Shown: positions 6,969-32,904 of the stretch, piece after piece | How positions within the stretch are numbered: the stretch's first letter is position 1 | Layout: every line of letters starts with the position of its first letter | DNA from: Escherichia coli | Lineage (GTDB): Bacteria > Pseudomonadota > Gammaproteobacteria > Enterobacterales > Enterobacteriaceae | Assembly: GCF_044324785.1 (NCBI RefSeq) | Contig: NZ_CP172127.1 | Direction: 5' to 3' (one strand) | DNA length: 64,000 nucleotides | The notes under the pieces: generated by a model | What the model saw: the letters and a program-made list of their open reading frames with translations, nothing else | What the model was told of the DNA's origin: nothing | Database searches by the model: none | Translations under genes and position numbers: made by a program

Positions 6969-7623
6969 ATGAAGGATCAACCAAAAGCCAGCTAAGGAGC
7001 GTCTCTTTGATGACCTTACGTCTGGCTTCCAGTGCCTGGGGGGAAACCATACTGATATGATAAACTAGGCCAAGCGTATGCTGGTTGATCAAATAATATC
7101 CCCCAAGCGCAGCAATATTAATATTCACCTGCAATGGGTCGATATCTGGCTTAAAAATATTGTGTTTCTTCCCTTCATCCAATAAGGATTCCATTAACTG
7201 CAAGTGCGCATGGTTAATTTCTAAGAGACGCTGTGATTTTGCATAATGCACACCTTTACTTTGATTTTCACTATGCACAATTTTTAAAAACCAGGGGTTA
7301 GCAATATAATAATCCCATGTAAAATCAATAATTTTCTCAATGGCTTTTTGTGGCGGAAGATCTGAGAAATCAAGGGCCTTTTCTTTTTGTCGAATATCGT
7401 TCCAGGTATATTCCAGTACTTCAATAAATAAATTTTCTTTATTACCAAAGTGATGATAAACCGTCTGTTTACTACACCCCGCAGCCTTAACAATATTATC
7501 GACCCTGGCCCCTTCATAACCATATTCGGCAAATTCATTAACCGCGCATAACAGCAGCTTTTCCTTCAGGCTCTGTACGTTGCTGGTATCAAGATACATA
7601 ACGCTTCCCCACGACCTCTTCAA
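6952..7623 (-). CDS. TetR/AcrR-family transcriptional regulator (full-length; K-12 carries only a remnant, ytfA, as far as I recall)
   Basis: 223-aa ORF with N-terminal TetR helix-turn-helix (...[18 protein letters not shown]...); AT-rich; 3' end overlaps ytfB 3' end by 17 bp; divergent from the downstream operon. Confidence 0.75.
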
Positions 7624-7809
7624 GACAACTATCTTAACCCGATTAATTAGAAGCTCCAGTAAAAAGGATAAAAACTTGTACTTTCATCAAGTTATCAAAT
7701 GTCCTGTGATCACTATCGCATATCAACCAACCAGATGGTTGATCTTTCTTGCGGCACGTCGCAAGCTAATTGTCACTTAGAAACAATATTCAAAAAAGAG
7801 AGCTATTGT

Positions 7810-8601
7810 ATGAAATCCACTCGTCCTGTTGCCGTGATTACCGGAGCCGCTCGTGGTATTGGAAAGGGCTGTGCGCTGGAGCTTGCTCGTGGCGGATTTA
7901 ACCTGCTGATTAACGATCGCCCCGATGATGACAGCGTAGAAAAATTACATGCCACGCAACAGGAATGTCTGGCAGAAGGTGTGGAAGTGATTTGCTTCCC
8001 TGCCGATGTCGGCGATCTCTCCTTGCATGAAGAGATGCTCGACGCGGCACAAAACCAGTGGGGACGTCTGGACTGCCTGCTCAACAACGCAGGCATTTCA
8101 GTGAAAAAACGCGGTGACCTTCTCGACCTCGAACCAGACAGCTTCGACCAAAATATTGCCATTAACACCCGCGCACCGTTCTTCCTCGCTCAGGCATTCA
8201 GTAAGCGCTTACTGGCACAGCCGAAACCGGAAGCAGAACTGCCGCACCGCTCGATTATTTTTGTCAGTTCCATCAACGCCATCATGCTGGCGATGAATCG
8301 CGGCGAATATACCATTGCCAAAACTGCCGTCTCTGCCGCTGCTCGTCTGTTTGCTGCTCGGCTTTGTAATGAACAAATTGGCGTTTATGAAGTGCGTCCT
8401 GGTCTCATCAAAACCGATATGACTATTCCGGCAACGGCCTATTACGACGAACTGATTGCCAAAGGTCTGGTGCCGTGGGGACGTTGGGGTTATCCGGCTG
8501 ATATTGCTTCCACTGTCCGCGCGATGGCGGAAGGTAAACTGATTTACACCTGTGGTCAGGCGGTTGCCATTGACGGCGGCTTAAGTATGCCGCGTTTCTG
8601 A
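7810..8601 (+). CDS. Short-chain dehydrogenase/reductase (SDR)
   Basis: ORF 7699..8601; start at ATG 7810 with upstream aagagag SD; TGAARGIGKG Rossmann motif, NNAG, YxxxK (YTIAK) catalytic motif. Confidence 0.8.
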   Translation: MKSTRPVAVITGAARGIGKGCALELARGGFNLLINDRPDDDSVEKLHATQQECLAEGVEVICFPADVGDLSLHEEMLDAAQNQWGRLDCLLNNAGISVKKRGDLLDLEPDSFDQNIAINTRAPFFLAQAFSKRLLAQPKPEAELPHRSIIFVSSINAIMLAMNRGEYTIAKTAVSAAARLFAARLCNEQIGVYEVRPGLIKTDMTIPATAYYDELIAKGLVPWGRWGYPADIASTVRAMAEGKLIYTCGQAVAIDGGLSMPRF

Positions 8602-8610
8602 GGCTGAATC

Positions 8611-9453
8611 ATGAGAGATCTGTTACAACGCCCGGATTTATTCAGTATCAATACCGCGACACTGGGCTATAAAACGCCGCTTCCCGCCATTATTGATGCC
8701 TGCGCCGCACGCGGTATTGGCGCAATTGCCCCCTGGCGCAGGGAGTTGCAGGGTGAAGATCTCCAGCAAATCGCCCGCCAGCTTGCCGCCAGTAAGATGA
8801 ACGTTTCCGGTTTGTGCCGTAGCACTTACTACACCGCGCCGACACTGGCGGAACGCAAACTGGCGATTGATGATAACCGCCGGGCGCTGGACGACGCAGC
8901 GGTGCTTAACGCCGCCTGTTATATGCAGGTGGTTGGCGGGTTACCGCAGGGAACAAAAGATTTGTACGAAGCGCGGGAACAAGTAAAACAAGGGATTCGC
9001 CAGTTGCTGCCACATTCGAAAGATGTCGGCGTGCCAATTGCGCTGGAGCCGCTGCACCCGATGACTGCTGCCGACCGCTCTTGCCTGTGCACGTTACGTC
9101 AGGCGCTGGACTGGTGTGATGAACTCGATCCCGATGGTGAGTTTGGCCTCGGCGTAGCGGTAGATGTCTACCATGTCTGGTGGGACCCGGATCTCGCCAG
9201 CCAACTCCAGCGCGCCGGAAAACGCATCCTCGCGTTTCATGTTTCCGACTGGTTAGTACCAACCACCGATCTGGTCAATGACCGTGGAATGCCGGGAGAT
9301 GGCGTCATCAATATTCCGTCAATTCGTCGGCTGGTTGAAAACGCCGGATTTAATGGCGCTATTGAACTGGAAATATTCTCGCCGTACTGGTGGCAAAAAG
9401 ATATTAACAGCACGCTGGATATTAGCGTCGATCGCATCGCGCATTATTGCTAA
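8611..9453 (+). CDS. Xylose-isomerase-like TIM-barrel protein (sugar-phosphate isomerase/epimerase family)
   Basis: 280-aa ORF 10 nt downstream of the SDR gene; family assignment by sequence resemblance, not verified. Confidence 0.65.
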   Translation: MRDLLQRPDLFSINTATLGYKTPLPAIIDACAARGIGAIAPWRRELQGEDLQQIARQLAASKMNVSGLCRSTYYTAPTLAERKLAIDDNRRALDDAAVLNAACYMQVVGGLPQGTKDLYEAREQVKQGIRQLLPHSKDVGVPIALEPLHPMTAADRSCLCTLRQALDWCDELDPDGEFGLGVAVDVYHVWWDPDLASQLQRAGKRILAFHVSDWLVPTTDLVNDRGMPGDGVINIPSIRRLVENAGFNGAIELEIFSPYWWQKDINSTLDISVDRIAHYC

Positions 9454-9462
9454 GGAATGATT

Positions 9463-10239
9463 ATGAGTGACCAACCCGTTCTGTTCAGCAGAGCGGCGGC
9501 TTCCTGCCGTCTGACATTGAACCGTGAAGATAAATGTCATGCTATTAATGAAGAGATGATTGAATCTCTCGATCATTATTTAAATGAAATTGAAAACGAC
9601 ACCACATTACGATTAGTCGAATTAACGGCAACCGGCGATAAATTCTTTTGTGCGGGCGGCGATATTAAATCGTGGTCAGCCTATTCGCCATTAGATATGG
9701 GCAGAAAATGGATTAAACGCGGTAATGACGTTTTTAATCGCCTGCGCAACTTACCCCAATTAACCGTTGCAAATCTCAACGGTCATACCATCGGCGGTGG
9801 TATTGAACTTGCTTTGTGCTGCGATATTCGTATTGCCCGTCCCGGCGCGAAATTCTCTAACCCGGAAGTGATGCTCGGCATGGTGCCTGGCTGGATGGGC
9901 ATTGAACGTGTGCTTAATCAGGTCGGTCCGGTGGTCGGTCGCCAGATGCTGATGCTGGGTAAACGCCTGACGGCGCGGGAAGCTCAGGCGGCGAATTTAA
10001 TTGATGAAGTGGTAGAAAAAGAACAGGTGGAAAGCTGGATGGCGAACCAGTTAGCGCAGCTGGAAAAATGTGGTCCGGTGGCGCTCGCACATATCAAGCA
10101 ACTGATTCTGGCACTGGAAAATAAACATGCCGATTACCCGCACCAGCTACTGGCTGGATTAATGTCCGCCACTCAGGATTGCCAGCAGGCGACGCGCGCG
10201 TTTGCCGAAAAAAGTAGCGTGAGCTTCCACAATCAATAA
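9463..10239 (+). CDS. Enoyl-CoA hydratase/isomerase (crotonase) family protein
   Basis: ORF 9457..10239; FFCAGGDIK and GGG/EL crotonase motifs; aagga SD favours ATG 9463. Confidence 0.75.
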   Translation: MSDQPVLFSRAAASCRLTLNREDKCHAINEEMIESLDHYLNEIENDTTLRLVELTATGDKFFCAGGDIKSWSAYSPLDMGRKWIKRGNDVFNRLRNLPQLTVANLNGHTIGGGIELALCCDIRIARPGAKFSNPEVMLGMVPGWMGIERVLNQVGPVVGRQMLMLGKRLTAREAQAANLIDEVVEKEQVESWMANQLAQLEKCGPVALAHIKQLILALENKHADYPHQLLAGLMSATQDCQQATRAFAEKSSVSFHNQ

Positions 10240-10248
10240 GGAAATTGT

Positions 10249-11790
10249 ATGCGTAAGATAACAACCGCCGAGGCACTGGCGGCGCAAATTCAGGACGGCG
10301 CAACCATTGCCATTAGCGGTAACGGCGGCGGCATGGTGGAAGCTGACCATATTATGGCCGCCATTGAAGCGCGTTTCCTGCAAACCGGACACCCTCGCGA
10401 TCTGACATTGATCCACTCGCTGGGTATTGGCGATCGCGACAGCAAAGGCACTAACCGTTTTGCTCACGCCGAAATGCTCAAACGCATTATTGCCGGACAT
10501 TTTACCTGGTCGCCCAAGATGCAGGAACTGGTGAAAAGCAATGCTATTGAAGCCTACTGTTTCCCTGGTGGCGTGATTCAGGCGTTGCTACGGGAGATCG
10601 GTGCCGGACGTCCGGGGCTTTTTACCCACGTTGGGCTGGGATCGTTTGTTGATCCACGCAATGGCGGCGGTAAGTCGAATGAATGCACTACCGACGACCT
10701 GGTAGAACTGATTGAAATCGACGGTGAGACCAAACTTCGTTATCGCCCTTTCAAAGTGGATTACGCGATTTTGCGTGGCACTTATGCCGATCCACGAGGC
10801 AACGTTAGCCTCGAAGAAGAAGCGATTGATATGGATAGCTATTCGATGGCGCTGGCAGCACACAACAGCGGTGGCAAAGTGTTCGTACAGGTACGCGATG
10901 TGCTGGAAGCAGGTGCCATTGAACCACGCCGGGTTAAATTACCGGGGATTCTGGTTGATGGCATCGTTGAACACCGCGAACAGCCACAAACCTATCTTGG
11001 CAGTTACGACCTGACCATCAGCGGCCAACATCGCCGTCTGAGTTCTAACGACGCTATTGAGCTGGTTAGTCATCCGGTGCGTCGCCTGATTGCCCGTCGG
11101 GCAGCGCGGGAACTGGTGGCAGGCGCTTCAACCAACTTTGGCTTTGGTATTCCCGGCGGCATTCCAGGAGTAGCGCTGCGCGAAGGCGTGCCTTACCAAA
11201 GTTTATGGCTGAGCGTCGAGCAAGGCGTGCATAACGGTATGATGCTGGATGATGCGTTTTTCGGCTGCGCCCGCAACGCCGATGCCATTATTCCATCACT
11301 CGATCAATTTGAGTTCTACAGTGGTGGAGGGATCGATATCACCTTCCTCGGCATGGGAGAGATGGATCAGTACGGTAACGTCAACGTATCCCATCTCAAT
11401 GGCAATCTGATTGGCCCCGGCGGATTTCTCGAAATTGCGCAAAATGCCCGTAAAGTGGTGTTCTGCGGCACGTTCGACGCTAAAGGCAGCAAAATCGATA
11501 TAACGCCAGATGGCTTGCATATCGCCCAGTCAGGTCAAATCCCTAAACTGGTTACCCAGGTGGAAAAAATCACTTTTAGCGCCGCCTACGCACAGCAAAG
11601 TGGTCAGGAAGTGTTGTATATCACTGAGCGCGCAGTATTCCAGTTAACGGCAGAAGGCGTTGAATTAATTGAAATCGCGCCGGGTGTAGAGATTGAGCGC
11701 GACATTCTGCCGTTCATGGCTTTCCGTCCAATTATCAAGCACCCACGCCTGATGGAAAGTAGCCTGTTTACGCCGATGGAGGATGCATGA
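10249..11790 (+). CDS. Family-I CoA-transferase (acyl-CoA:acetate/3-ketoacid type, fused subunits)
   Basis: 513-aa ORF; resembles YdiF-like fused alpha/beta CoA-transferases; SD aagga upstream; translationally coupled to flanking genes. Confidence 0.7.
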   Translation: MRKITTAEALAAQIQDGATIAISGNGGGMVEADHIMAAIEARFLQTGHPRDLTLIHSLGIGDRDSKGTNRFAHAEMLKRIIAGHFTWSPKMQELVKSNAIEAYCFPGGVIQALLREIGAGRPGLFTHVGLGSFVDPRNGGGKSNECTTDDLVELIEIDGETKLRYRPFKVDYAILRGTYADPRGNVSLEEEAIDMDSYSMALAAHNSGGKVFVQVRDVLEAGAIEPRRVKLPGILVDGIVEHREQPQTYLGSYDLTISGQHRRLSSNDAIELVSHPVRRLIARRAARELVAGASTNFGFGIPGGIPGVALREGVPYQSLWLSVEQGVHNGMMLDDAFFGCARNADAIIPSLDQFEFYSGGGIDITFLGMGEMDQYGNVNVSHLNGNLIGPGGFLEIAQNARKVVFCGTFDAKGSKIDITPDGLHIAQSGQIPKLVTQVEKITFSAAYAQQSGQEVLYITERAVFQLTAEGVELIEIAPGVEIERDILPFMAFRPIIKHPRLMESSLFTPMEDA

Positions 11791-13859
11791 GTCAGCTTGA
11801 TGACACCATCCTTGATGCGCTGACGCACGTCACTTTCCCAAAGGGGTTTGTGTCAGCAGAGCCAACGTCAATTGTCACCGTTGAGGATGTTGATTACCCG
11901 ATCTGGCAAGTTGATGCGCTGGTCGTTGGTAGCGGCGCAGCAGGATTACGTGCGGCAGTTGAACTTAAACGCCGCCAGCAAAATGTGCTGATCGCCACCG
12001 CCGGGTTATATATGGGGACGTCGGCATGTTCTGGTTCCGATAAACAGACGTTGTTTACCGCCGCTACCGCGGGCAACGGCGACAACTTCGCCAAACTGGC
12101 AGAGGCACTTGCGAGCGGTGGGGCGATGGATCACGACACCGCTTATGTCGAAGCGGTAGGTTCTCTGCACACTCTTGGCGGGTTGCAATATCTTGGTCTG
12201 GAATTACCGGAAGATCGCTATGGCGCGATTCTTCGTTATCAAACCGACCATGACGAAGCCGGGCGTGCAACCTCGTGTGGGCCGCGTACCTCAAGGTTAA
12301 TGGTGAAAGTGCTGCTGGAAGAAGTACAGCGTCTTGCTATCCCAATGTTGACCAGTGCAACAGTGATTAAACTGCTGCATCAGCGTGACGAAAACGGCGA
12401 AGACCGCGTGGCGGGGGCTATCCTCGCGACCGGTCATCGCGCCCATAACCCATGGGGGCTGGCAATTGTGATTGCGCCCAATGTGGTACTGGCAACAGGA
12501 GGGCCTGGCGAGCTTTATCGCGACAGTGTGTACCCACACAAATGTTTCGGCTCGCTGGGTCTGGCGCTGGAGGAAGGTCTGACGCTAACGAATCTGACTG
12601 AAAGCCAGTTTGGTATAGGCACACCGCGCAGCACGTTTCCGTGGAATTTGTCCGGGACTTATGTACAGGTGATCCCATATATCTATTCCGTGGATGCTGA
12701 GGGTAACGAGTATAACTTCCTCGCGGATTACTATCGCACCACCCAGGAGCTGGCTTCAAACATTTTCCGTAAAGGCTATCAGTGGCCGTTCCACGCCACT
12801 CGGGTGATGGATTTTGGCTCCAGCTTGTTAGATATGGCAGTAGCGCAAGAGCAGCAATCAGGGCGTCAGGTATTTATGGATTTCAATCGCAATCCTGAAG
12901 CGGTGCCGGGTGACCTGCCCTTCTCATTAGATCGACTGGACGACGACGTTCGCGCGTATCTGGAAAATAACGACGCTCTGGCACCATCGCCCATCGAACG
13001 GCTGCAACGAATGAATCCGCTGTCTATCTCGCTGTATAAGATGCACGGTTACGATCTCACCACACAGCCATTGCAGTTTGCCATGAATAATCAGCATATG
13101 AATGGCGGCATTGAAGTCGATATCTGGGGACAAACATCTCTACCCGGTTGTTTTGCAGTGGGGGAAGTTGCTGGCACACACGGCGTCACCCGACCTGGCG
13201 GCGCGGCATTGAATGCCGGGCAGGTTTTTGCTGTTCGTCTGGCACGTTTTATTGGTTGCACGCAAAAGCGGAATATTGATGGAGATATAGCACAGCTGGC
13301 AGCTCCGGCACTGGCTTCTATAAGAGAGATCATTACTCAGGCGCACGATAACGGGACCGGGATGCCGTTGTCGGTTGTGAGAGAAAAAATTCAGGCACGA
13401 ATGTCTGACCATGCGGGATTTATTTGTCATGCCGATAAAGTCCGACGCGCCACTCGTGATGCCCTGCTATTGAACGAATTTGTCCAACGGCATGGATTGG
13501 CAATCAAACATGTGGGTGAAGTTTCCGAGCTGTTTATGTGGCGGCATATGGCGCTGACTTCTGCCGCGGTATTAACACAATTAACGCATTATATTGATGC
13601 TGGTGGCGGCAGTCGTGGGGCGCGGATGGTTATTGATCCACAAGGCAAATGCCTACCACAAACTCGTCGCGGCGTAAAAGAAGAATGGCGTTTTCGCTCT
13701 GAACTCGCTGAAGATAAAAATCACAAATTAACAATTCAATATTCGCAAGGTTCTTTTATTACCGAAGTAAAGTCTTTACGTATGCAACCGTGTATTAACG
13801 GTATTTACTTTGAAAAAAACTGGCCAGACTTTTTAAAGGGAGACATTTACACACAATAA
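11787..13859 (+). CDS. FAD-binding oxidoreductase, fumarate reductase/succinate dehydrogenase flavoprotein superfamily
   Basis: 690-aa ORF overlapping the CoA-transferase stop (ATGA); VVGSGAAGLRAA dinucleotide fold at residue ~46 and C-terminal GEVAGTHGVTRPGGAALN motif typical of FrdA/SdhA/NadB. Confidence 0.75.
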   Translation: MSQLDDTILDALTHVTFPKGFVSAEPTSIVTVEDVDYPIWQVDALVVGSGAAGLRAAVELKRRQQNVLIATAGLYMGTSACSGSDKQTLFTAATAGNGDNFAKLAEALASGGAMDHDTAYVEAVGSLHTLGGLQYLGLELPEDRYGAILRYQTDHDEAGRATSCGPRTSRLMVKVLLEEVQRLAIPMLTSATVIKLLHQRDENGEDRVAGAILATGHRAHNPWGLAIVIAPNVVLATGGPGELYRDSVYPHKCFGSLGLALEEGLTLTNLTESQFGIGTPRSTFPWNLSGTYVQVIPYIYSVDAEGNEYNFLADYYRTTQELASNIFRKGYQWPFHATRVMDFGSSLLDMAVAQEQQSGRQVFMDFNRNPEAVPGDLPFSLDRLDDDVRAYLENNDALAPSPIERLQRMNPLSISLYKMHGYDLTTQPLQFAMNNQHMNGGIEVDIWGQTSLPGCFAVGEVAGTHGVTRPGGAALNAGQVFAVRLARFIGCTQKRNIDGDIAQLAAPALASIREIITQAHDNGTGMPLSVVREKIQARMSDHAGFICHADKVRRATRDALLLNEFVQRHGLAIKHVGEVSELFMWRHMALTSAAVLTQLTHYIDAGGGSRGARMVIDPQGKCLPQTRRGVKEEWRFRSELAEDKNHKLTIQYSQGSFITEVKSLRMQPCINGIYFEKNWPDFLKGDIYTQ

Positions 13860-13951
13860 TTTTCAATATTTCCTCTGTACCTGATTTTTATTGCCTATTA
13901 CATGGAAATACCAACAACCAGGGTTTATTAATATAATTAAAAGGTTTAAAA

Positions 13952-15229
13952 ATGAATAAAATAAAGAATTATCGATGGCATATGATTGCCCTCGTATGCT
14001 TTATCACTGTAATCAATTATCTGGACAGAACGGCGTTAGGTATTGCGGCTCCAACGATTATGGAGACAACCGGAATAACTAAAGAGCAATATTCATGGAT
14101 TGTCAGTGCATTCCAGTTGGCCTATACATTAGGGCAACCGGTAATGGGCTTCTTTATTGATACCGTGGGTCTGAAGTTAAGTTTTGCGATATGTGCCGCA
14201 ATTTGGGGCCTGGCGACAATGGGCCATGCACTAACCGGAACGTGGTCTGGTCTGGCATTTATGCGCGCCCTGATGGGTTTCAGCGAAGCGTCGGCAATTC
14301 CGGCGGGTGTAAAAACCGCATCAACATGGTTCCCGGCAAAAGAGCGTGGCGTGGCGACAGGTGTTTTCAATATGGGCACCTCACTCGGCGCGATGCTTGC
14401 TCCACCGTTGATTGCCTGGTGCATTATGTTTCATAGCTGGCAATTTGCGTTTATTGTTTCAGGTAGCCTTGCTTTGCTCGCGGCTTTATTTTGGTTCTTT
14501 TGTTATAAAGATCCGAAAGATGCCAAACGCCTTTCTGATGAAGAGCGCCACTATATTGAATCAGGGCAAGAACAGCATCTTAAAACAGATAAGAAAGAAA
14601 AAACGTCAATCAAGCATATCCTCAGCCAACGTAATTTCTGGGGGATTGGCATCGCGCGTTTTCTCGCAGACCCGGCATGGGGAACCATTAACTTCTGGGT
14701 GCCGATTTTCTTCGTCGAAACGCTGCATTTTAGCCTGAAAGAAATTGCCATGTTCGTCTGGCTGCCTTTCCTGCTGGGCGATCTCGGCTGTTTAGCCAGT
14801 GGTTTTGTCGCGAAGTTCTTCCACGATCGCGGCGTGAGTTTAATTAACTCACGAAGAATTACCTTCACTATTGCAGCCGTCATTATGATGACGATTGGCC
14901 TGGTGAGTATTGTCGAAAATCCCTACATTGCCGTATTACTGATTAGTATTGGCGCGTTCTCGCATCAATGTCTTTCTACTGTAGCAGCAACTCTGGGTGG
15001 CGATCTGTTCAAAAAAGACGAAGTAGCTACCGCAGTGGGTATGGCAGGAGCCTGTGCGTGGAGCGGTCAGTTGATTTTCAACCTGTTCATCGGGGCATTC
15101 GTTCACATTATCGGCTTCGCGCCGTTCTTTATTGCCCTGGCTTTCTTTGACATTATTGGTGCTATTGCGTTGTGGACGCTTATCAAAGTTAAAGATGAAG
15201 AACCGCAAGTACAGCTAGCTACCCATTAA
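13952..15229 (+). CDS. MFS transporter
   Basis: 425-aa ORF with ~12 predicted hydrophobic helices; AT-rich codon usage. Confidence 0.75.
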   Translation: MNKIKNYRWHMIALVCFITVINYLDRTALGIAAPTIMETTGITKEQYSWIVSAFQLAYTLGQPVMGFFIDTVGLKLSFAICAAIWGLATMGHALTGTWSGLAFMRALMGFSEASAIPAGVKTASTWFPAKERGVATGVFNMGTSLGAMLAPPLIAWCIMFHSWQFAFIVSGSLALLAALFWFFCYKDPKDAKRLSDEERHYIESGQEQHLKTDKKEKTSIKHILSQRNFWGIGIARFLADPAWGTINFWVPIFFVETLHFSLKEIAMFVWLPFLLGDLGCLASGFVAKFFHDRGVSLINSRRITFTIAAVIMMTIGLVSIVENPYIAVLLISIGAFSHQCLSTVAATLGGDLFKKDEVATAVGMAGACAWSGQLIFNLFIGAFVHIIGFAPFFIALAFFDIIGAIALWTLIKVKDEEPQVQLATH

Positions 15230-15240
15230 TTATTTTAAAT

Positions 15241-15273
15241 AAAAACGCTATAATTGAGGTTATGGCGTTTTTA
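15241..15273 (+). terminator. Predicted rho-independent terminator after the MFS gene
   Basis: Hairpin acgctataa...ttatggcgt followed by a T-run. Confidence 0.5.
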
Positions 15274-15499
15274 AAGAAGCTTGAGTTATCGAACCTCGCT
15301 TACCAACGCGTTGTCAATCATATCCCCCCTCCCTGCTGCATCGTTATATCCACAATGAGCGATTTTTGATATTAATATCTTTCACCATCCGCTATTTTCA
15401 CTACTTCAGAAAACAAACTTATTTTTATTAATATCGATTCTTTATTCTGTAAACATTCAGCTGAGATATTTATAAAAACATTAAACAGGCAACGATACA

Positions 15500-16855: not shown

Positions 16856-17402
<547 letters not shown>

Positions 17403-17408
17403 CAGAAA

Positions 17409-17990
<582 letters not shown>

Positions 17991-18130
17991 TTCATCACAC
18001 ATCATCATGGTGTTTTTTTGAACAACTGCATCAGAAATGGTCACCATCAACTTCTTTATCATTGATTAAAATTAAATCAGAAGATCATCACAAAGGAGAG
18101 CACACAAAGTCAGCCGTCGAGGAGGTATCT

Positions 18131-18406
18131 ATGTTCAGTCGTGTTTTAGCCCTTCTGGCTGTGCTTTTGCTAAGTGCAAATACATGGGCAGCCATTGAAA
18201 TTAATAACCACCAGGCCAGAAATATGGACGATGTGCAAAGCTTAGGCGTGATTTATATCAACCATAACTTCGCCACTGAAAGTGAAGCACGTCAGGCATT
18301 AAATGAAGAGACAGATGCGCAGGGCGCAACGTACTACCACGTGATTCTGATGCGGGAACCGGGGAGTAACGGCAATATGCACGCCAGCGCGGATATTTAT
18401 CGCTAG
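18131..18406 (+). CDS. yjfY: DUF1471 (YhcN/BhsA-family) small secreted stress protein
   Basis: ORF 18062..18406 (TTG-initiated in the track); 91-aa product from ATG 18131 preceded by ggagg SD; signal peptide. Confidence 0.85.
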   Translation: MFSRVLALLAVLLLSANTWAAIEINNHQARNMDDVQSLGVIYINHNFATESEARQALNEETDAQGATYYHVILMREPGSNGNMHASADIYR

Positions 18407-18445
18407 CACCAGGTATAACCAACGAAACATTGCCATAGTTTGCTT

Positions 18446-18471
18446 TGCCCCCTTCGCAGGGGGCTTTTTTT
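18446..18471 (+). terminator. Rho-independent terminator of yjfY
   Basis: gcccccttcgcagggggc hairpin followed by a run of seven T. Confidence 0.8.
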
Positions 18472-18534
18472 GAAAAACGGCTGCGGAATTAGACCAGTTA
18501 TCTCCCGAGGAAGGAAATTTCCGCAGCGCGTGTT

Positions 18535-19221
18535 TTACTTCTGCCCGTAATAAGCGTTGGGACCATGCTTACGCATGAAGTGTTTATTCATCAGGAAGCT
18601 GTCGATGTGATTCAGTTGTGGGTTAATGCCGCGGGCAATCCACGCCATTTTCGCCACTTCTTCCATCACCACCGCATTATGCACCGCATCGTGAGCATCT
18701 TTCCCCCAGGCGAACGGCCCGTGCTGATACACCACAATCCCCGGTGTATGCAGCGGCTCGGCGTTGCCCAGCGTTTCGATAATTACTTTGCCGGTGTTCA
18801 GTTCGTACTCGCCCTGCACCTCTTCTTCGCTTAATCCGCGCGTACACGGGATATCGCCAAAGAAGTAGTCGGCGTGCGTGGTGCCTAACGCCGGGATCGC
18901 CAGCCCCGCCTGCGCCCATGCGGTAGCATGAGTGGAGTGGGTATGGACAATGCCACCAAGCGACGGATAACGACGGTAGAGTTCGAGATGCGTCGCAGTA
19001 TCGGAAGACGGGCGATACGCCCCTTCCACCACCTTGCCGCTCATATCGACCACCACCATATCGCCTGCTTTCATGGTTTCGTAGGCGACGCCGCTGGGCT
19101 TGATCACCACCAGCCCGCGTTCGCGGTCGATGGCGCTGACGTTGCCCCAGGTAAAGGTCACCAGCCCGTAACGCGGCAGATCCATGTTGGCTTCAAATAC
19201 CTGCTGTTTCAGCTTTTGCAT
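18535..19221 (-). CDS. ulaF: L-ribulose-5-phosphate 4-epimerase
   Basis: 228-aa product from internal Met ([12 protein letters not shown]...); class II aldolase fold; ula operon synteny. Confidence 0.92.
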
Positions 19222-20075
19222 TATGCCGCCTCCACCATGCCAGCTTTGGCCATGCGCGCTTTCACCCAATCACGCGCTTTCGCCACTTCCGCCGCCGGGT
19301 CTTCCGCCGTTTCGCTCCACATCTCAATCAGGTACGGCCCGCAATAGCCACTCTGTTTGAGCGTTTCGAAGCAACGTTCGAAATCCACTACGCCTTCGCC
19401 AAACGGCACATTTTTGAAGACGCCTGGTTTGGTGTCTTTCACATGCACCGCGACGATATGCCCAATTCCGGCCTGCAATTCCATCTGCACGTCGTTGTCC
19501 CACGCCGACAGGTTGCCGATATCCGGATAGAGCTGGAACCACGGGTTGTTGAGATAGTGCGCATAGCCCAGCGCCTTGCTGATGGAGTTCATCAATGGAT
19601 AATCCATGATCTCCATTGCCAGCGTCACCTGCGCGCGGCTTGCCATCTCAACGCTCTCTTTCAGGCCGTCACGGAAACGACGACGCGTTTCGTTATTGGC
19701 TTCCTGATAGTAAACGTCATAGCCCGCCAGTTGGATCACGCGAATGCCAACGTCCTGGGCGAACTGGATAGCTTTACGCATAATCTCCAGCCCCTGCGCC
19801 CGCACCGCGTCATCTTCGCTACCCAGCGGGAAACGACGATGAGCAGAAAGGCACATAGACGGTACACGCACGCCGGTTTCAACAATCGCATTCACCAGCG
19901 CCAGACGCTGCTCGCGGCTCCAGTCGAGGCGCGACAGGCGATCGTCAGTTTCATCTACCGACATCTCGACAAAATCGAAGCCTAACGTTTTTGCCAGTTG
20001 CAGCCGTTCCAGCCAGCACTCCCCGGCGGGGAGCGCTTTTTCATAGATGCCAAGCGGGATTTGTTTGGACAACAT
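19221..20075 (-). CDS. ulaE: L-ribulose-5-phosphate 3-epimerase
   Basis: 284-aa ORF; xylose-isomerase-like TIM barrel. Confidence 0.92.
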
Positions 20076-20084
20076 ATCCGCTCC

Positions 20085-20735
20085 TTAGCCCCACAGTTCG
20101 GCGATGGAACGTTTGAACTGACGCGCAGCTTCAACCGGAGAAGCGGCATCACGGATACTGCGACCAGCGATAAACACATGAATCGGAATGCCTTTGAACA
20201 GCGGCAGATCTTCCAGCGCTAGGCCACCGGTGACGGTCACTTTAAAGCCCATATCGGACAGACGTTTGATCGCGGTAATGTCAGCTTCGCCCCACGCCAC
20301 GCCTGCGGCCTGCGCGTCACGGCTGCGGTGATAAACCACCTGCTGAATACCTGCGTCGCGCCACTGTTGCGCCTGTTCCCAGGTCCAGTAGCCAGTCAGT
20401 TCGATCTGCACGTCGCCGTTAAACTCTTTTGCCACGTCCAGCGCGCCCTTGGCGGTGTTGATATCCGCACAGCAAATTACGGTCACCCAGTCAGCGTTGG
20501 CTTCGAAGCACATACGAGAAAGGATTTTGCCCGCATCGGCAATTTTGGCGTCTGCCAGTACGATTTTGTGCGGGTAAAGCGCTTTCAGGTCACGAACTGC
20601 ACGCACGCCTTCGCCTACGCACAGAATGGTGCCCACTTCGATAATGTCGACTTCTTCGGCAATCAGGCGAGTGGTTTCGTAGGCGCTATCCATAGTCTGG
20701 TTGTCCAGCGCGACTTGCAACATTGGTAATGACAT
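20085..20735 (-). CDS. ulaD: 3-keto-L-gulonate-6-phosphate decarboxylase
   Basis: 216-aa product from internal Met ([13 protein letters not shown]...). Confidence 0.92.
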
Positions 20736-20748
20736 GTTCAATTCCTTC

Positions 20749-21213
20749 TTAAGCTGCCGCGTTGGTGCGGTCAATGAGATCCAGTACTTCCTGCTCGGTA
20801 CGGCAGGCACGTAAACGGTCGAAATTCTCTTCATCTTCAAACAGATTGACGATCTGCATGATGCCCACTTCCTGGTGAGTGTTGGCATCGACCGCCGCCA
20901 TGGTGATGAGGATATCCACCGGATCGTTATCTTCGTGGTTGAACTCCAGCGGCTTTTTCAGCGTCACCAGCGCAAAACCGGTTTTCTTAACGCCCTCTTC
21001 CGGGCGACCGTGCGGCATTGCCAGGCCTGGTGCGAGCACAAAGTACGGACCGTGCTGTTCAACCGCATCCAGAATCGCCTGGTAGTAACGCGGCTCGACA
21101 ACATCCGCCGCCACCAGCAGGTCAACGCCGATTTTCACTGCGTCCTGCCATGTCTCAGCTTCAGCCTGCAGGCGGATGGATTTATTCTCCGCCAGCGAAT
21201 CACGTAATTTCAT
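20749..21213 (-). CDS. ulaC: Ascorbate-specific PTS EIIA
   Basis: 154-aa ORF. Confidence 0.92.
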
Positions 21214-21222
21214 GGCGCGTCC

Positions 21223-21528
21223 TTACTTCACGTCCTGCGGGAAATGCTCTTTGATCACTTCCAGCAGTTTCGGGCCAAAGTCGGCAGGAGAGAGCATGTT
21301 GCGCACACCAACCACGTATTTGTTGCCGGTCACGGTGATTTCGCCCGCAATGTGCGTAGAAGCGATGATGATATCCGCGCCGCTCAACTCGCTTTTGTAT
21401 TCGCCAACCGCGCAGCTGTTTACCGTGTGGTCAATGTTTGATTGGGTTAAAAACTGGTCCACTTTCATCTTCATGATCATGGAACTGCCTTGTCCGTTGC
21501 CACACACAGCCAGAATACGTACGGTCAT
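21223..21528 (-). CDS. ulaB: Ascorbate-specific PTS EIIB
   Basis: 101-aa product ([16 protein letters not shown]... with active-site Cys). Confidence 0.92.
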
Positions 21529-21543
21529 AATCAAAACTCCTTA

Positions 21544-23295
<1,752 letters not shown>

Positions 23296-24360
23296 ATGAG
23301 TAAAGTGAAAAGTATCACCCGAGAATCCTGGATCCTGAGCACTTTCCCGGAGTGGGGTAGCTGGCTGAATGAAGAAATTGAACAAGAGCAGGTCGCCCCT
23401 GGCACATTTGCGATGTGGTGGCTAGGCTGCACCGGGATCTGGCTGAAATCAGAAGGTGGCACCAACGTTTGCGTTGATTTCTGGTGCGGCACTGGCAAAC
23501 AAAGTCACGGTAACCCGTTAATGAAACAGGGTCACCAGATGCAGCGCATGGCTGGCGTGAAAAAACTGCAGCCAAACCTGCGCACCACCCCGTTTGTTCT
23601 TGATCCGTTTGCGATTCGCCAGATCGACGCGGTACTGGCGACTCACGATCACAACGATCATATCGACGTTAACGTCGCTGCTGCCGTGATGCAGAACTGT
23701 GCTGATGACGTACCGTTCATTGGACCGAAAACCTGCGTTGATTTGTGGATTGGCTGGGGCGTACCGAAAGAGCGTTGCATCGTGGTCAAACCTGGCGATG
23801 TTGTAAAAGTGAAAGACATTGAAATTCATGCGCTTGACGCTTTCGACCGTACTGCACTGATCACCCTGCCTGCCGATCAAAAAGCGGCTGGCGTACTGCC
23901 AGATGGCATGGACGATCGCGCAGTAAACTACCTGTTCAAAACCCCTGGCGGTTCCCTGTATCACAGTGGCGATTCCCACTACTCTAACTATTATGCGAAG
24001 CACGGTAACGAACATCAGATCGATGTGGCGTTAGGATCGTATGGTGAGAACCCGCGCGGTATTACCGACAAAATGACCAGCGCCGATATGCTGCGTATGG
24101 GTGAAGCCCTGAATGCGAAAGTGGTTATCCCGTTCCACCACGACATCTGGTCAAACTTCCAGGCCGATCCGCAAGAAATCCGCGTGCTGTGGGAGATGAA
24201 AAAAGATCGTCTGAAGTATGGCTTCAAGCCGTTTATCTGGCAGGTGGGCGGCAAATTTACCTGGCCGTTGGATAAAGACAACTTCGAGTACCACTATCCG
24301 CGTGGTTTCGATGATTGCTTCACTATTGAACCGGATCTGCCGTTCAAGTCATTCCTGTAA
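23296..24360 (+). CDS. ulaG: L-ascorbate-6-phosphate lactonase (metallo-beta-lactamase fold)
   Basis: 354-aa product ([21 protein letters not shown]...; HxHxDH motif ATHDHNDH). Confidence 0.92.
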
Positions 24361-24467
24361 TCTGTCGTTTATACCGGATAGCGTGGAGTAGTTCGCGCTA
24401 TCCGGCGTAGTATTTCCTGGCTATTTCAAATATCATCTAAAAAAATCAAATTTTATCGGAATAGCTC

Positions 24468-25223
24468 ATGACTGAAGCACAAAGACATCAAATCCTCCTG
24501 GAAATGCTCGCACAATTGGGCTTTGTGACCGTTGAGAAAGTCGTTGAGCGTCTGGGAATTTCGCCTGCCACTGCGCGACGCGATATCAATAAACTTGACG
24601 AAAGCGGCAAACTGAAAAAAGTGCGCAATGGCGCAGAAGCTATTACCCAACAGCGCCCACGCTGGACGCCGATGAATCTGCATCAGGCGCAGAATCACGA
24701 TGAAAAAGTACGTATTGCTAAAGCGGCCTCGCAGCTGGTTAATCCGGGCGAAAGCGTAGTCATCAACTGCGGCTCCACCGCGTTTCTGCTTGGGCGGGAA
24801 ATGTGTGGCAAGCCAGTGCAAATCATCACTAATTATCTACCGCTGGCAAATTACCTGATCGATCAGGAGCATGACAGCGTGATCATTATGGGCGGACAGT
24901 ACAACAAAAGTCAGTCCATCACTTTAAGCCCGCAAGGCAGCGAAAACAGTCTCTATGCCGGGCACTGGATGTTTACCAGCGGCAAAGGGCTGACAGCAGA
25001 AGGGTTGTATAAAACCGATATGTTGACGGCAATGGCAGAGCAGAAGATGCTGAGCGTGGTAGGGAAATTGGTGGTACTGGTTGATAGCAGTAAGATTGGC
25101 GAACGCGCGGGAATGCTTTTTAGCCGTGCCGATCAAATCGATATGCTGATCACCGGCAAAAATGCTAACCCGGAAATCCTGCAACAACTGGAAGCGCAAG
25201 GGGTCAGCATTCTGCGTGTTTAA
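24468..25223 (+). CDS. ulaR: DeoR-family repressor of the ula regulon
   Basis: 251-aa ORF with N-terminal HTH and DeoR C-terminal sugar-phosphate-binding domain. Confidence 0.92.
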
Positions 25224-25969
25224 AGATGCTGGCGGAAAAATGTCACGGCAGCATCTAACGCCTCAGGCGTAATGCGGTGACGCACGCCTGGCTGCCATGA
25301 ACAGGTTAGCAGTTTATCCCGTCCCGTCTCGCTTAAGGCCTGCTGCAAACGTAGTGATTCGTCGGCAGGCACGACGTCATCGTCAAGGCCATGCCACAGC
25401 AGTAGAGGTCTGTCAGCAAGTTGTTCCAGGTGGTTTGTCGCTTCCCACTCTGCCAGCGGCGCGACAATGTTATTGAATTCATTCTGCTGTGCTGCCGTTT
25501 CAGGTATCAGCGGTGGAAACAGTGAACGGGCGAGTGATGTAAAATAGCCCGATCCCATCATGCTGGCGGTACATTTCACCGTGGGGTGGCGAGCGGTAAT
25601 TCCCAGTGCCGTCATCGCGCCCATCGACGCGCCACCGACTGCCAGACGGTCAGCAAGCAGCCAGTTTTCTTCGGCTATTGCCGCACGTAACGTAGTGAAT
25701 TCCTGCATACTTTGTAGCAAAATTTGCCAAAATTGATTTAACCGCCGCGCTGCGTCGCCCCTAAAACGGCTACCGTGATCGGGCGCATCCGGCATGATCA
25801 CTCGCAAACCAGCCTGCGCCAGCGCAACGGCAAAATAGCTATACACCAGACTGGACGAAGTAAAGCCGTGATAAAAAATCACGCACGGTAATGGGGTATC
25901 TTTTTGCCCGACAGGATAAGCATGAAGAACGGGAATATCTGCCAGCTCGCGTGATTCTATTTCAATCAT
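25220..25969 (-). CDS. yjfP: Alpha/beta-hydrolase esterase
   Basis: 249-aa ORF; GxSxG nucleophile motif (GGASMGA). Confidence 0.88.
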
Positions 25970-26150
25970 CTGTCTCTCCTTTTTGTCTGGTATGACATGA
26001 AGAAATCCTTAGCACAAGTTTCTGCTGGCGGTATTAGTTCATAATGTTGAGATGTGGGTTACGCTTTCATCACGTTTTCATTCGAAAATCGCGTACCAGG
26101 TAACAATTCGGGAACATTCCCCCAAAGTTAAATTAATAAGGCACTACACT

Positions 26151-26480
26151 ATGGTTAGCAGGAAACGTAATAGCGTTATTTACCGGTTTGCCAGTTTATT
26201 ATTGGTGTTGATGTTAAGTGCCTGTAGCGCACTGCAAGGTACGCCACAGCCAGCACCGCCAGTAACGGACCATCCGCAAGAGATTCGCCGCGACCAGACG
26301 CAAGGGTTACAGCGAATAGGTAGCGTAAGCACGATGGTTCGGGGTTCTCCGGATGACGCATTAGCAGAAATCAGAGCGAAAGCTGTCGCGGCAAAAGCTG
26401 ATTATTACGTTGTCGTCATGGTGGACGAAACCATCGTGACAGGACAGTGGTATTCACAAGCCATTTTGTACCGTAAATAA
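26151..26480 (+). CDS. bsmA: DUF1471 lipoprotein, biofilm stress and motility protein A
   Basis: 109-aa product from internal Met (MVSRKRNSVIYRFASLLLVLMLSACSALQG, lipobox). Confidence 0.85.
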   Translation: MVSRKRNSVIYRFASLLLVLMLSACSALQGTPQPAPPVTDHPQEIRRDQTQGLQRIGSVSTMVRGSPDDALAEIRAKAVAAKADYYVVVMVDETIVTGQWYSQAILYRK

Positions 26481-26628
26481 ATCAGACAACTTACATAGTC
26501 AGCTTTACATTGCTTTGCGTCCCTATGCGTTTACCTGTGCACAATAAATTACCGGCTGGAAGCCTGGGCGTTTATTACCGCGATGGAATGCCCTGCAACA
26601 TGTGGGGAAACGAAAAATGGAGCTGACG

Positions 26629-26904
26629 ATGAAACAATTACTTGCCTCACCCTCGCTGCAATTAGTGACTTATCCTGCGAGCGCCACGGCACAGTCTGCA
26701 GAATTCGCCAGTGCTGACTGCGTGACAGGCCTGAATGAAATAGGTCAGATCTCAGTTAGCAATATTTCAGGGGATCCGCAGGACGTGGAACGTATCGTGG
26801 CGTTAAAGGCTGATGAACAAGGTGCGTCATGGTACCGCATTATTACCATGTACGAAGACCAGCAGCCTGATAACTGGCGCGTACAGGCGATCCTGTATGC
26901 GTGA
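26629..26904 (+). CDS. yjfN: DUF1471-family small secreted protein
   Basis: 91-aa product from internal Met (MKQLLASPSLQL...). Confidence 0.85.
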   Translation: MKQLLASPSLQLVTYPASATAQSAEFASADCVTGLNEIGQISVSNISGDPQDVERIVALKADEQGASWYRIITMYEDQQPDNWRVQAILYA

Positions 26905-26927
26905 GTGTCATCTACAGCAAATGAACA

Positions 26928-26961
26928 ATGCCGGATGCGGCGCGAGCGCCTTGTCCGGCCA
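26928..26961. repeat. REP palindromic unit
   Basis: gccggatgcggcgcgagcgccttgtccggcc between convergent yjfN and aidB. Confidence 0.6.
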
Positions 26962-27011
26962 ACAATTTTCACATATTTCATATAGTTAATCGAAACCAGC
27001 GTCGTATACGC

Positions 27012-28637
27012 TTACAAACACACTCCTCCCGTCGCCCGCAGCAATAAATCATTCTGGATCTGCTCTGACAACCGTACGCCGCCGCGCGTATCTAACATCA
27101 CCTGACACCACGCCTGCGCCATTGGCGGAGAGGCATATTTCAACATTTGCGCACCGCAGCCCAGCAGGAATAGCTGATGAGTAATCTCTCGCCCCAGTTC
27201 TTCAGCTGGCTTACGCAGCTGCTGCTGTAAACGACGAACCGCGCGATCAAAATAGCGCTCCTGCCCTTTCACTTCCACAAATGCTTCCGACAATAAGTCG
27301 TATACGCCCGCTTGCTTATTGAGAACGCGCAGCACATCCAGGCACATAATATTGCCGGAACCTTCCCAGATACTGTTTACCGGCATCTCCCGGTAAAGCC
27401 GCGGCAGCTCGCTCTCCTCGCAATAACCAATGCCGCCCAGCACCTCCATCGCTTCGGCCACAAACGGCATACCTCGTTTGCAGATCACAAATTTCGCCGC
27501 AGGCGTAAATAAACGCGCCCACAGGGCTTCTTTGGCATCGGCACGCCGGTCCCACGCTCGCGCAAGACGAAACAGCAACGCCGTTTGCCCTTCAAGCTGA
27601 AGTGCCATGCGACTTAAGACATGACGCATAAGGGGCTGTTGGATCAATGGATTACCAAAAACATGGCGTTGATGTGCATGATAAATCGCCAGCGAAAATG
27701 CACGGCGCATCATGGCATGGCTACCCAGGGCGCAATCAAAACGCGTCATCCCACCCATTTTCAGGATCAGACGAATTCCTTCCCCTTCCTGCCCCAACAA
27801 CCAGCCAATGGCATCCTGAAACTCCACTTCGCAGCTGGCGTTAGAGCGATTACCCAGCTTATCTTTCAGCCGCTCGAGGCGAATCGCGTTGCGTTGCCCG
27901 TCAGGCAAAAAGCGCGGCACAAAAAAGCAGGACAAACCGCCCGTAGTCTGCGCCAGCACCAGATGCGCATCGCTTTGCGGCACCGAGAAAAACCATTTAT
28001 GCCCCACCAGCCGATAAGAGCCATCTTCCAGGCGCTCTGCGCGGGTGGTGTTGCTCATGACATCGGAACCGCCCTGCTTTTCCGTCATTCCCATGCCAAT
28101 CAACAAACCGCGTTTTTGTCCACCTGGCAATAAGTGAGAATCGTAGCGATCGCTCAGCAGCGGGGTGGTCCAGTCCTGAAACAGCGCGGGTAACATCTGT
28201 AACAGCAATGGCGTGGCGGCAAAGGTCATGGTTATCGGACATAACGACCCTGCCTCAACCTGTGCGTGCAACATAAAACGCGCCGCGCGCGCCACAAATG
28301 CGCCAGAGCGAGCGTCTTCTTCCCAGGCCAGATTATGTACCCGATTGGTACATAGCGCCTGCATCAGCAGGTGCCAGGCGGGGTGAAAACGCACATCGTC
28401 CAGACGGCGTCCTTGCGCATCGTAGCGCAATAATTCAGGCGGATTCACATTCGCCAGACGCCCCAGTTCAAGGGATTCAGCCGTTCCTAACTGCTGACCA
28501 ATACTGGCTAGAAAATCGCTATCCCAGCCAGCACCTTCACGCGTTACCGCTTCGCAGAGCGCGCCATCAGACAGGTATAAGTTGCTGTTATTTAATGGTA
28601 TAGGTTGATTAAAAACGGTGTGAGTTTGCCAGTGCAC
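27012..28637 (-). CDS. aidB: Adaptive-response acyl-CoA dehydrogenase-like protein
   Basis: ORF 27012..28655(-); 541-aa product if initiated at the GTG giving (M)HWQTHTVFNQ... Confidence 0.9.
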   Translation of the reverse strand: MHWQTHTVFNQPIPLNNSNLYLSDGALCEAVTREGAGWDSDFLASIGQQLGTAESLELGRLANVNPPELLRYDAQGRRLDDVRFHPAWHLLMQALCTNRVHNLAWEEDARSGAFVARAARFMLHAQVEAGSLCPITMTFAATPLLLQMLPALFQDWTTPLLSDRYDSHLLPGGQKRGLLIGMGMTEKQGGSDVMSNTTRAERLEDGSYRLVGHKWFFSVPQSDAHLVLAQTTGGLSCFFVPRFLPDGQRNAIRLERLKDKLGNRSNASCEVEFQDAIGWLLGQEGEGIRLILKMGGMTRFDCALGSHAMMRRAFSLAIYHAHQRHVFGNPLIQQPLMRHVLSRMALQLEGQTALLFRLARAWDRRADAKEALWARLFTPAAKFVICKRGMPFVAEAMEVLGGIGYCEESELPRLYREMPVNSIWEGSGNIMCLDVLRVLNKQAGVYDLLSEAFVEVKGQERYFDRAVRRLQQQLRKPAEELGREITHQLFLLGCGAQMLKYASPPMAQAWCQVMLDTRGGVRLSEQIQNDLLLRATGGVCL

Positions 28638-32778: not shown

Positions 32779-32904
32779 ATATTATTCCATATAAATTAAG
32801 TTTAAATATTAATAAAATGAATATTTGCAGTACGTAATTATCTTACCAGCTATAGACAAAAAAAAACCATCCAAATCTGGATGGCTTTTCATAATTCCGA
32901 GGAA

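Follow-up and report, generated by a model that had tools for sequence, protein, structure and literature searches.

Three DUF1471 genes around the ula regulon of Escherichia coli: a bsmA–yjfN tandem pair and a more distant yjfY

In Escherichia coli, three small exported proteins of the DUF1471 family, YjfY, BsmA (YjfO) and YjfN, are encoded close to one another around the ula regulon, and the present work concerns these genes in a 64-kb stretch of E. coli DNA, hereafter the window. We read the cluster as a bsmA–yjfN tandem pair accompanied by a more distant yjfY, and not as one triplet. From the sequence comparisons assembled here, the three are very probably members of this family, which is apparently specific to Enterobacterales, and are separate and separately regulated genes that form neither an operon nor a system. 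A preliminary description of the window had presented them as three paralogues within 9 kb; they are indeed homologues, but they do not constitute a single local family, since a specific relationship is confined to bsmA and yjfN. This analysis shows the homology, the anatomy of the genes, their synteny and the BsmA fold, while DegP activation, sigma-S binding and the phenotypes are taken from the literature.

Homology, locus and descent of the three genes

All three proteins match the PF07338 model (YdgH/BhsA/McbA-like, formerly DUF1471; 55 positions, gathering score 27 bits): YjfY with 71.6 bits (E 5e-20, profile positions 1-55), BsmA with 56.9 bits (E 2e-15, positions 1-55) and YjfN with 63.0 bits (E 3e-17, positions 1-54). 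BsmA also exceeds the 100-bit cut-off of the NCBIfam BsmA equivalog NF011433 (152.7 bits), which is not reached by YjfN (51.0 bits) or YjfY (31.9 bits), as paralogues should behave. None attains the 125-bit cut-off of the YhcN equivalog NF033776 (YjfY 51.1, YjfN 51.8 and BsmA 27.0 bits), and by these scores the three are paralogues of YhcN, not YhcN itself. Pairwise BLASTP gives E 4e-8 for BsmA with YjfN and E 1e-4 for YjfY with BsmA, at identities of just 27-30%; YjfY and YjfN give no alignment. It is therefore the profiles, and not a pairwise C-terminal match, that carry the homology across all three. The C-terminal strings on which the preliminary description relied (YYHVILMREPG...ADIYR; YYVVVMVDET...AILYRK; WYRIITMYED...AILYA) occur verbatim in the translations, and their similarity is significant at the profile level (PF07338), although the YjfY–YjfN pair alone would not pass.

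The names, sizes and family assignment first given to the genes agree with the RefSeq names, PF07338 and the open reading frames of 91, 109 and 91 aa, each encoding a single domain behind an N-terminal export signal (with a weak hydrophobic region in YjfN). E. coli has ten DUF1471 paralogues (PMC4092069, PMC12096828), and the family, also known as DUF1471/YhcN/BhsA-McbA, has been characterised for Salmonella SrfN, YahO and SssB/YdgH (PMC4092069). Seven other K-12 members were fetched (rclB, yahO, ybiJ, mcbA, bhsA, ydgH and yhcN), bringing the total into agreement with the published ten. Neither tblastn nor a six-frame search with a custom domain hidden Markov model found a fourth DUF1471 copy in the window.

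The features of the locus are as follows.

18131-18406, plus strand: yjfY, 91 aa; open reading frame and translation, PF07338, RefSeq 'DUF1471 family protein YjfY'
18535-25223, ulaFEDCBA on the minus strand, ulaG and ulaR on the plus strand: ula regulon, between yjfY and bsmA–yjfN; RefSeq annotation of a 98.6% identical locus
25220-25969, minus strand: yjfP esterase gene, divergent from bsmA; RefSeq annotation
26151-26480, plus strand: bsmA (yjfO), 109-aa lipoprotein; open reading frame, PF07338, BsmA equivalog, RefSeq 'biofilm peroxide resistance protein BsmA'
26504-26518, minus strand: candidate CpxR-like box GCAAAGCAATGTAAA, 111-125 bp 5' of the yjfN start codon; pattern search and spacer alignment
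26629-26904, plus strand: yjfN, 91 aa; open reading frame, Shine-Dalgarno sequence, PF07338, RefSeq 'DUF1471 family protease activator YjfN'

In the list of open reading frames for 17000-28500, yjfY, bsmA and yjfN are intact and all lie on the plus strand. The outer limits originally assigned to the cluster, 18131 and 26904, are exact: they are the first base of the yjfY ATG and the final base of the yjfN stop codon. The other ATG starts are at 26151 (bsmA) and 26629 (yjfN), the spacing between the two genes is 148 bp, and a GGAG Shine-Dalgarno sequence, kept in all genera examined, precedes the yjfN ATG. RefSeq annotation of the best-matching E. coli gives the order rpsF-priB-rpsR-rplI, yjfY, ulaFEDCBA, ulaG, ulaR, yjfP, bsmA, yjfN, aidB, so the described arrangement, with bsmA and yjfN adjacent and yjfY across the ula regulon, holds, with ula and yjfP between yjfY and bsmA. 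Of 5,426 complete E. coli genomes, 5,425 match the 11.5-kb stretch 17000-28500, 5,346 of these with a coverage of at least 80%; the whole stretch with the three genes is core E. coli chromosome. The top identity is 98.6%. As no match to this stretch reaches 99%, the source strain has no close representative in that genome collection.

Among the ten E. coli paralogues, all-against-all BLASTP makes YjfN the best match of BsmA. Comparison of mature-domain orthologue profiles by hhalign makes the two mutually best (72 and 65, E ~1e-14 and 1e-13), the next best to either being YhcN (48 and 43). In a neighbour-joining tree of 69 columns with 300 bootstrap replicates, every orthologue group alone received 100%, the BsmA–YjfN grouping 72%, YjfY with YdgH 47%, and the clade of all three 14%. 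The alignment and phylogeny of the E. coli members, proposed earlier as a check, are therefore in line with a pair and not with a trio. A specific kinship of YjfY to its neighbours was favoured by hhalign; this proved artefactual, since profiles had been set against single sequences, and was gone with equal treatment. Once all targets were single sequences, YjfY was equidistant from YjfN, YhcN and YdgH.

One genome per species was scanned with YjfN, giving 43 loci onto which the window proteins were mapped. The scan, which detects close relatives only, returned Enterobacteriaceae and Pantoea, barring one record labelled Chryseobacterium. bsmA and yjfN are adjacent and in the same orientation in 39 of the 39 Enterobacteriaceae loci examined, an adjacency already pointed out for yjfN and yjfO (PMC4092069). 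The order rpsF, yjfY, ula, yjfP, bsmA, yjfN, aidB is fully kept in Escherichia, Citrobacter, Enterobacter, Lelliottia, Raoultella, Klebsiella indica, Trabulsiella and Pluralibacter. The entire ula regulon is absent from Citrobacter sp. Awk 4 (L015, 8118-10222) and Enterobacter vonholyi (L028, 8211-10222), where yjfP alone stands between yjfY and bsmA–yjfN and the three genes occupy ~2.1 kb. Because both species are nested in ula-bearing genera, this state is most simply a secondary deletion, and the ula block between yjfY and bsmA–yjfN is, to judge from these loci, dispensable. Neither yjfY nor ula is present in Intestinirhabdus alba (L026). Each of the four Pantoea loci has a single DUF1471 gene adjoining aidB, which encodes a lipoprotein of BsmA type, lipobox and proline-rich linker included. 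bsmA and yjfN would have arisen by a tandem duplication no younger than the Enterobacteriaceae. One possibility is that it preceded the split from Pantoea, with loss of yjfN in that lineage, the other that YjfN changed more quickly; dating through Pantoea is ambiguous, since the tree places Pantoea BsmA among the other BsmA proteins.

Some of the scanned loci deserve separate mention. In Escherichia albertii NBRC 107761 (L009, 8002-8328), bsmA contains two in-frame stops (DHP*EIRR and TGQ*YSQ) and is a pseudogene, with yjfY and yjfN intact. In three other Escherichia lineages (L008 at 9570-9840, L010 and L011), a ~250-bp repeat element is inserted precisely at the stop codon of bsmA. Inverted repeats of 25 nt form its termini and its core, GAATCCCCGGGAGCTTACATAA...GACTGGGTGAGCG, is ERIC-like; its insertion duplicated the target TATAC-N2-TAAATAA, and BsmA ends in ...LYSK, not ...LYRK, in the translated L008 and L010 loci. 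The element is absent from the window. The Escherichia records L008-L011, one of them titled E. coli, are 90-94% identical, and Escherichia sp. MOD1-EC7003 (L007) is 95-96% identical. The record titled Chryseobacterium sp. 18061 (L025) carries the rpsF-yjfY-ula-yjfP-bsmA-yjfN-aidB locus typical of Enterobacteriaceae. Since its gene order and percent identities are almost those of Citrobacter sp. 18056 (L024) from the same project, this assembly is probably mislabelled or contaminated.

Termini, fold and regulation

Signal-peptide strength was taken as the peak 8-residue Kyte-Doolittle mean. YjfY has a canonical Sec signal peptide, MFSRVLALLAVLLLSANTWA followed by AIEINN, with a peak hydropathy of 3.4. 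Its mature part is highly conserved in the orthologue alignment, and it is predicted to be a soluble periplasmic protein. In BsmA, a basic n-region and a hydrophobic core lead to the lipobox LSAC with Cys25, which fits the pattern [LVI][ASTVI][GAS]C at the end of the signal peptide, and a linker then connects to the DUF1471 domain. The proline-rich tether reads GTPQPAPPVTDHPQEI and the linker SALQGTPQPAPPVTDHPQEIRRDQTQG, the proline-rich linker having ~28 residues. Box and linker are kept in 16 orthologues, including those of Pantoea, with the lipobox forms LSGC, LSAC, LCGC, ISGC and LTGC, and the cysteine is followed by S, T or A, in no case by D. Under the Lol +2 rule, the residue after the lipoprotein cysteine directs membrane sorting, and we infer an outer-membrane location for BsmA because no Asp occurs at +2.

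The AlphaFold2 model of BsmA, built from a 33-sequence alignment, has a mean predicted local distance difference test score of 84.8, with residues ~40-109 above 94 and the linker unstructured. Its topology is beta-alpha-beta-beta. Foldseek against the PDB matched the model to the SssB/YdgH domains 2m2j and 4evu (template modelling (TM) score 0.79 for each) and to SrfN 2ma8 (TM 0.67), so that the model displays the mixed alpha+beta fold of the solved DUF1471 members SrfN, YahO and domains I and III of SssB. YjfY matches the solved SrfN structures 2jna and 2ma8 by sequence. A sequence search of the PDB gave no meaningful matches for BsmA or YjfN, and BsmA is therefore tied to the solved domains through the structure search only.

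YjfN aligns with BsmA from the internal Met of BsmA onwards in the MAFFT alignment, with no lipobox cysteine and a 9-residue gap in the proline-rich linker. The first 17 residues of its mature N-terminus, SAEFASADCVTGLNEIG (window 26695-26745), are near-invariant from Escherichia to Klebsiella and Trabulsiella. This segment is more conserved than parts of the folded domain and holds a single cysteine, a residue otherwise rare in the DUF1471 family (PMC4092069). At the other end, YjfN terminates in ...AILYA. In every orthologue examined the last two residues are YA or YV; they are Y-K/R in the remaining nine E. coli paralogues, and YjfN alone has a hydrophobic end. According to Kim et al. 2018 (J Bacteriol 200:e00519-17), as cited in PMC12096828 and bioRxiv 10.1101/2024.12.25.630354, YjfN activates the protease DegP through its C-terminal Ala, so that OmpA is degraded under envelope stress, and is itself degraded as a DegP substrate, hence the term 'suicide activator'. 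The Ala/Val C-terminus, set against the Y-K/R of the family, fits this published role. In addition, CsgA degradation by DegP/DegQ in vitro needs YjfN (bioRxiv 10.1101/2024.12.25.630354), and YjfN is a multicopy suppressor of a strain without six cytoplasmic prolyl isomerases (PMC7461557). The earlier view that the molecular function of these proteins is unclear thus holds for YjfY and BsmA, and is out of date for YjfN insofar as the cited account of Kim et al. is followed. What our alignments add is that, across the sampled genera, the Ala/Val C-terminus and the 17 mature N-terminal residues of YjfN are conserved and its signal peptide is not. The differences between BsmA and YjfN, as aligned, are concentrated at the two termini.

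The two genes also differ in their upstream regions. At bsmA, the promoter is a specific target of the sigma-S RNA polymerase holoenzyme, which binds it in vivo and opens it in vitro; a sigma-S RNA polymerase peak was mapped by chromatin immunoprecipitation at the bsmA locus beside yjfP (PMC4447067). The bsmA–yjfN spacer contains a strong conserved block, CAGCTTTACATTGCTTTGCG...CCTGTGCACAATAAA, in an alignment of 12 sequences from ~8 named genera. Its reverse strand, GCAAAGCAATGTAAA, has 1 mismatch to the CpxR consensus GTAAA-N5-GTAAA, and the TTTAC and GCTTT cores are invariant in the alignment. The whole 64 kb contains just 6 CpxR-like sites with no more than 1 mismatch. The CpxR iModulon includes yjfN (PMC7657598), and the candidate box suggests Cpx control of yjfN with induction by envelope stress. 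Given the sigma-S promoter of bsmA and the CpxR-like box of yjfN, the duplicates appear to be under different stress regulators, the Cpx part being deduced from the box.

A second invariant block 5' of yjfN, GATGGAATGCCC, lies at ~26578-26590, and the yjfN 5' leader combines a conserved GGAATGCCC block with variable GC-rich segments. A conserved RNA structure in this leader was considered and rejected (RNAalifold -0.42 kcal/mol, 4 invariant pairs, zero compensatory changes). A simple promoter and terminator scan of 25900-27100, which is silent on co-transcription of bsmA and yjfN, found no sigma-70-like promoter and a single weak terminator-like site, on the minus strand downstream of aidB. 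Elsewhere in the window, the sole perfect CpxR consensus is GTAAAAACGCGTAAA at 52328-52342, in the 3' end of rsgA and ~135 bp upstream of psd (annotated asd/psd); RegulonDB counts both psd and mscM among the members of the CpxR regulon.

Alternative accounts of the cluster

Several observations weigh against the account given here. In single-sequence comparison the top match of YjfN is YhcN, slightly above BsmA (35.4 vs 33.9 bits), a second such comparison gave 40 for YjfN–YhcN and 35 for YjfN–BsmA, and in the tree Pantoea BsmA joins the other BsmA proteins at 100%, with YjfN excluded. As the single-sequence best match of YjfN is YhcN, the sisterhood of BsmA and YjfN depends on profiles, adjacency and the moderate 72% bootstrap. 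The Escherichia YjfN signal peptide, MKQLLASPSLQLVTYPASATAQ (26629-26694), has a hydropathy of 0.9, against 2.2-3.4 in the nine paralogues, which is awkward for a protein that has been described as periplasmic. It has an n-region and an AXA-like site (ATA/Q), with two prolines and a weak hydrophobic region. The YjfN orthologues of Citrobacter (signal peptide MKQSLALSSLLLSAGLVSTTAQ) and Enterobacter have normal signal peptides (~2.5), and in several other genera the peptide is short and weak (17 aa), with the mature protein almost invariant. The N-terminal signal or lipoprotein sequences ascribed to all three proteins are thus evident in the signal peptide of YjfY and the lipobox of BsmA, whereas that of YjfN is present but unusually weak in Escherichia. 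No direct CpxR binding was found at yjfN under ethanol stress (PMC7657598). Finally, YjfY appears in the literature only in lists, with no functional information.

Another account would derive the three genes from one local triplication, the trio being mutually closest and later parted by insertion of ula. In simulations on the chromosome, three of ten randomly placed genes fall within 8.8 kb with P ~0.001, and one extra family member lies beside the tandem pair by chance with P ~0.03. The family is clustered elsewhere too, ybiJ and mcbA being 4 kb apart; compared with the other six paralogues, a loop is 3 residues longer in BsmA, YjfN, YjfY and the three YdgH domains; and in the compact loci of Citrobacter sp. 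Awk 4 and E. vonholyi the trio lies close together with no ula genes in between. However, the clade of all three reaches only the 14% given above, against 47% for YjfY with YdgH, and the best BLASTP matches of YjfY are YdgH (38 bits) and YhcN (36 bits), with no alignment to YjfN. Pantoea and Intestinirhabdus carry bsmA at the site without yjfY, and the compact arrangement is, as argued above, most simply a deletion. A single triplication is therefore unlikely, and the proximity of yjfY may be coincidental or may go back to an older local duplication.

The trio and the ula (ascorbate) regulon that it flanks might also be thought to act as a unit, for example against ascorbate-linked oxidative stress, given their position on either side of ula in most of the Enterobacteriaceae loci examined and the link of bsmA to peroxide resistance. 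This is very improbable: the trio is retained in the two species without ula, Pantoea has bsmA without ula, the upstream regions of the three genes are separate, with distinct regulators reported (sigma-S for bsmA) or suggested (Cpx for yjfN), and the three are transcribed separately from the ula operons. Functional coupling to the regulon is rejected on account of the persistence of the trio where ula is absent. The chance that the C-terminal pattern is a coincidental or compositional resemblance among non-homologous proteins is virtually nil. Although the empty YjfY–YjfN comparison and the low identities would allow it, it is refuted by the Pfam matches (E 1e-15 to 1e-20, with full-length domain coverage), by hhalign between orthologue profiles (E 1e-6 to 1e-14), and by the Foldseek matches of the BsmA model to solved DUF1471 structures, to which the sequence match of YjfY to SrfN can be added.

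We therefore favour a tandem pair with a distant third member, for which the following scheme may be proposed. DUF1471 members are small exported alpha+beta domains of the cell envelope. In BsmA, the proline-rich linker would tether the domain; the gene has a promoter of its own that sigma-S recognises, and BsmA (YjfO) is linked to biofilm and peroxide stress (Weber et al. 2010, as cited in PMC4092069 and PMC4447067). YjfN would be the soluble sister of BsmA, having lost the lipobox cysteine and 9 linker residues and swapped the basic C-terminal residue of the family for Ala/Val, a hydrophobic tail that, on the literature evidence, engages and activates DegP at the cost of YjfN itself. yjfY would be a more distant member beside rpsF, with the ula regulon as a dispensable block in between.

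The wider window and comparison with known systems

Two differences in gene content lie outside the DUF1471 locus. An accessory block of ~8 kb (7354-15305) separates the ytfB/TetR-family gene from yjfZ. The best-matching strain lacks it, and 1,654 of the 5,426 complete E. coli genomes carry it (best identity 97.8%). It is annotated with a sugar-phosphate isomerase/epimerase, a 3-ketoacyl-ACP reductase, an acyl-CoA:acetate/3-ketoacid CoA transferase, an FAD-dependent oxidoreductase and an MFS transporter. At 32889-32898, between yjfI and rlmB, the window lacks ~5 kb found in the reference strain Res13-Lact-PER13-34, where the segment encodes a UxaA-family hydrolase, an MFS transporter, a DHDPS-family protein and an IclR regulator.

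All that is central to the three genes has been annotated or published before: the family, its ten E. coli members, the bsmA–yjfN adjacency, the fold, the likeness to RcsF, the BsmA phenotypes and the DegP mechanism of YjfN. The discovery value of the present work is therefore small, and its modest added value is comparative, namely the pair with a distant member, the dispensable ula block, the differences at the termini, the candidate CpxR-like box and the weak signal peptide. They may help to direct experimental work on the family.

A more speculative joint reading, to which we give little credence, would draw on analogy with RcsF. BsmA might be RcsF-like, its tether letting the domain contact or thread through outer-membrane beta-barrel proteins to sense or buffer envelope damage. 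YjfN might be a duplicate without the tether that a single change of its C-terminal residue has made into a consumable activator of DegP, with the weak signal peptide and a Cpx-type promoter limiting its periplasmic amount. If this were true, bsmA–yjfN would be an example of one DUF1471 scaffold rewired by changes at the termini only, and interaction with outer-membrane proteins would be the common activity of the family.

The comparison with RcsF, which serves the Rcs phosphorelay as its outer-membrane lipoprotein sensor, itself reveals both likeness and difference. BsmA shares with it a lipobox, an unstructured proline-rich linker of ~30 residues and a small alpha+beta domain, and the modelled BsmA domain superposes on RcsF 2y1b (TM 0.66, root-mean-square deviation 2.8) and 2l8y (TM 0.57). 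This reproduces the published structural resemblance of DUF1471 proteins to RcsF (PMC4092069, PMC12096828, PMC12282094). By contrast, there is no detectable sequence relationship, with ~15% identity in the structural alignment, and RcsF has four conserved cysteines forming two disulfides essential for activity, whereas the mature BsmA domain has no cysteine. Other DUF1471 proteins likewise lack the RcsF cysteines (PMC4092069). Because these essential cysteines are missing, BsmA is, on its sequence, not an RcsF family member.

With respect to the DUF1471 family, the trio is alike in domain, size and exported single-domain layout, and the BsmA model shares the alpha+beta fold; there is no family-level difference, the three being named E. 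coli members of it. Within the family, BsmA is the lipoprotein member and YjfN departs from the basic C-terminal residue. The window BsmA is the same as the published BsmA (YjfO), by its equivalog-level match and its locus beside yjfP, with no difference between them. Likewise, the window YjfN, 99-100% identical to Escherichia references, is the E. coli orthologue of the published protein, with no difference detected, and keeps the C-terminal Ala of the published mechanism.

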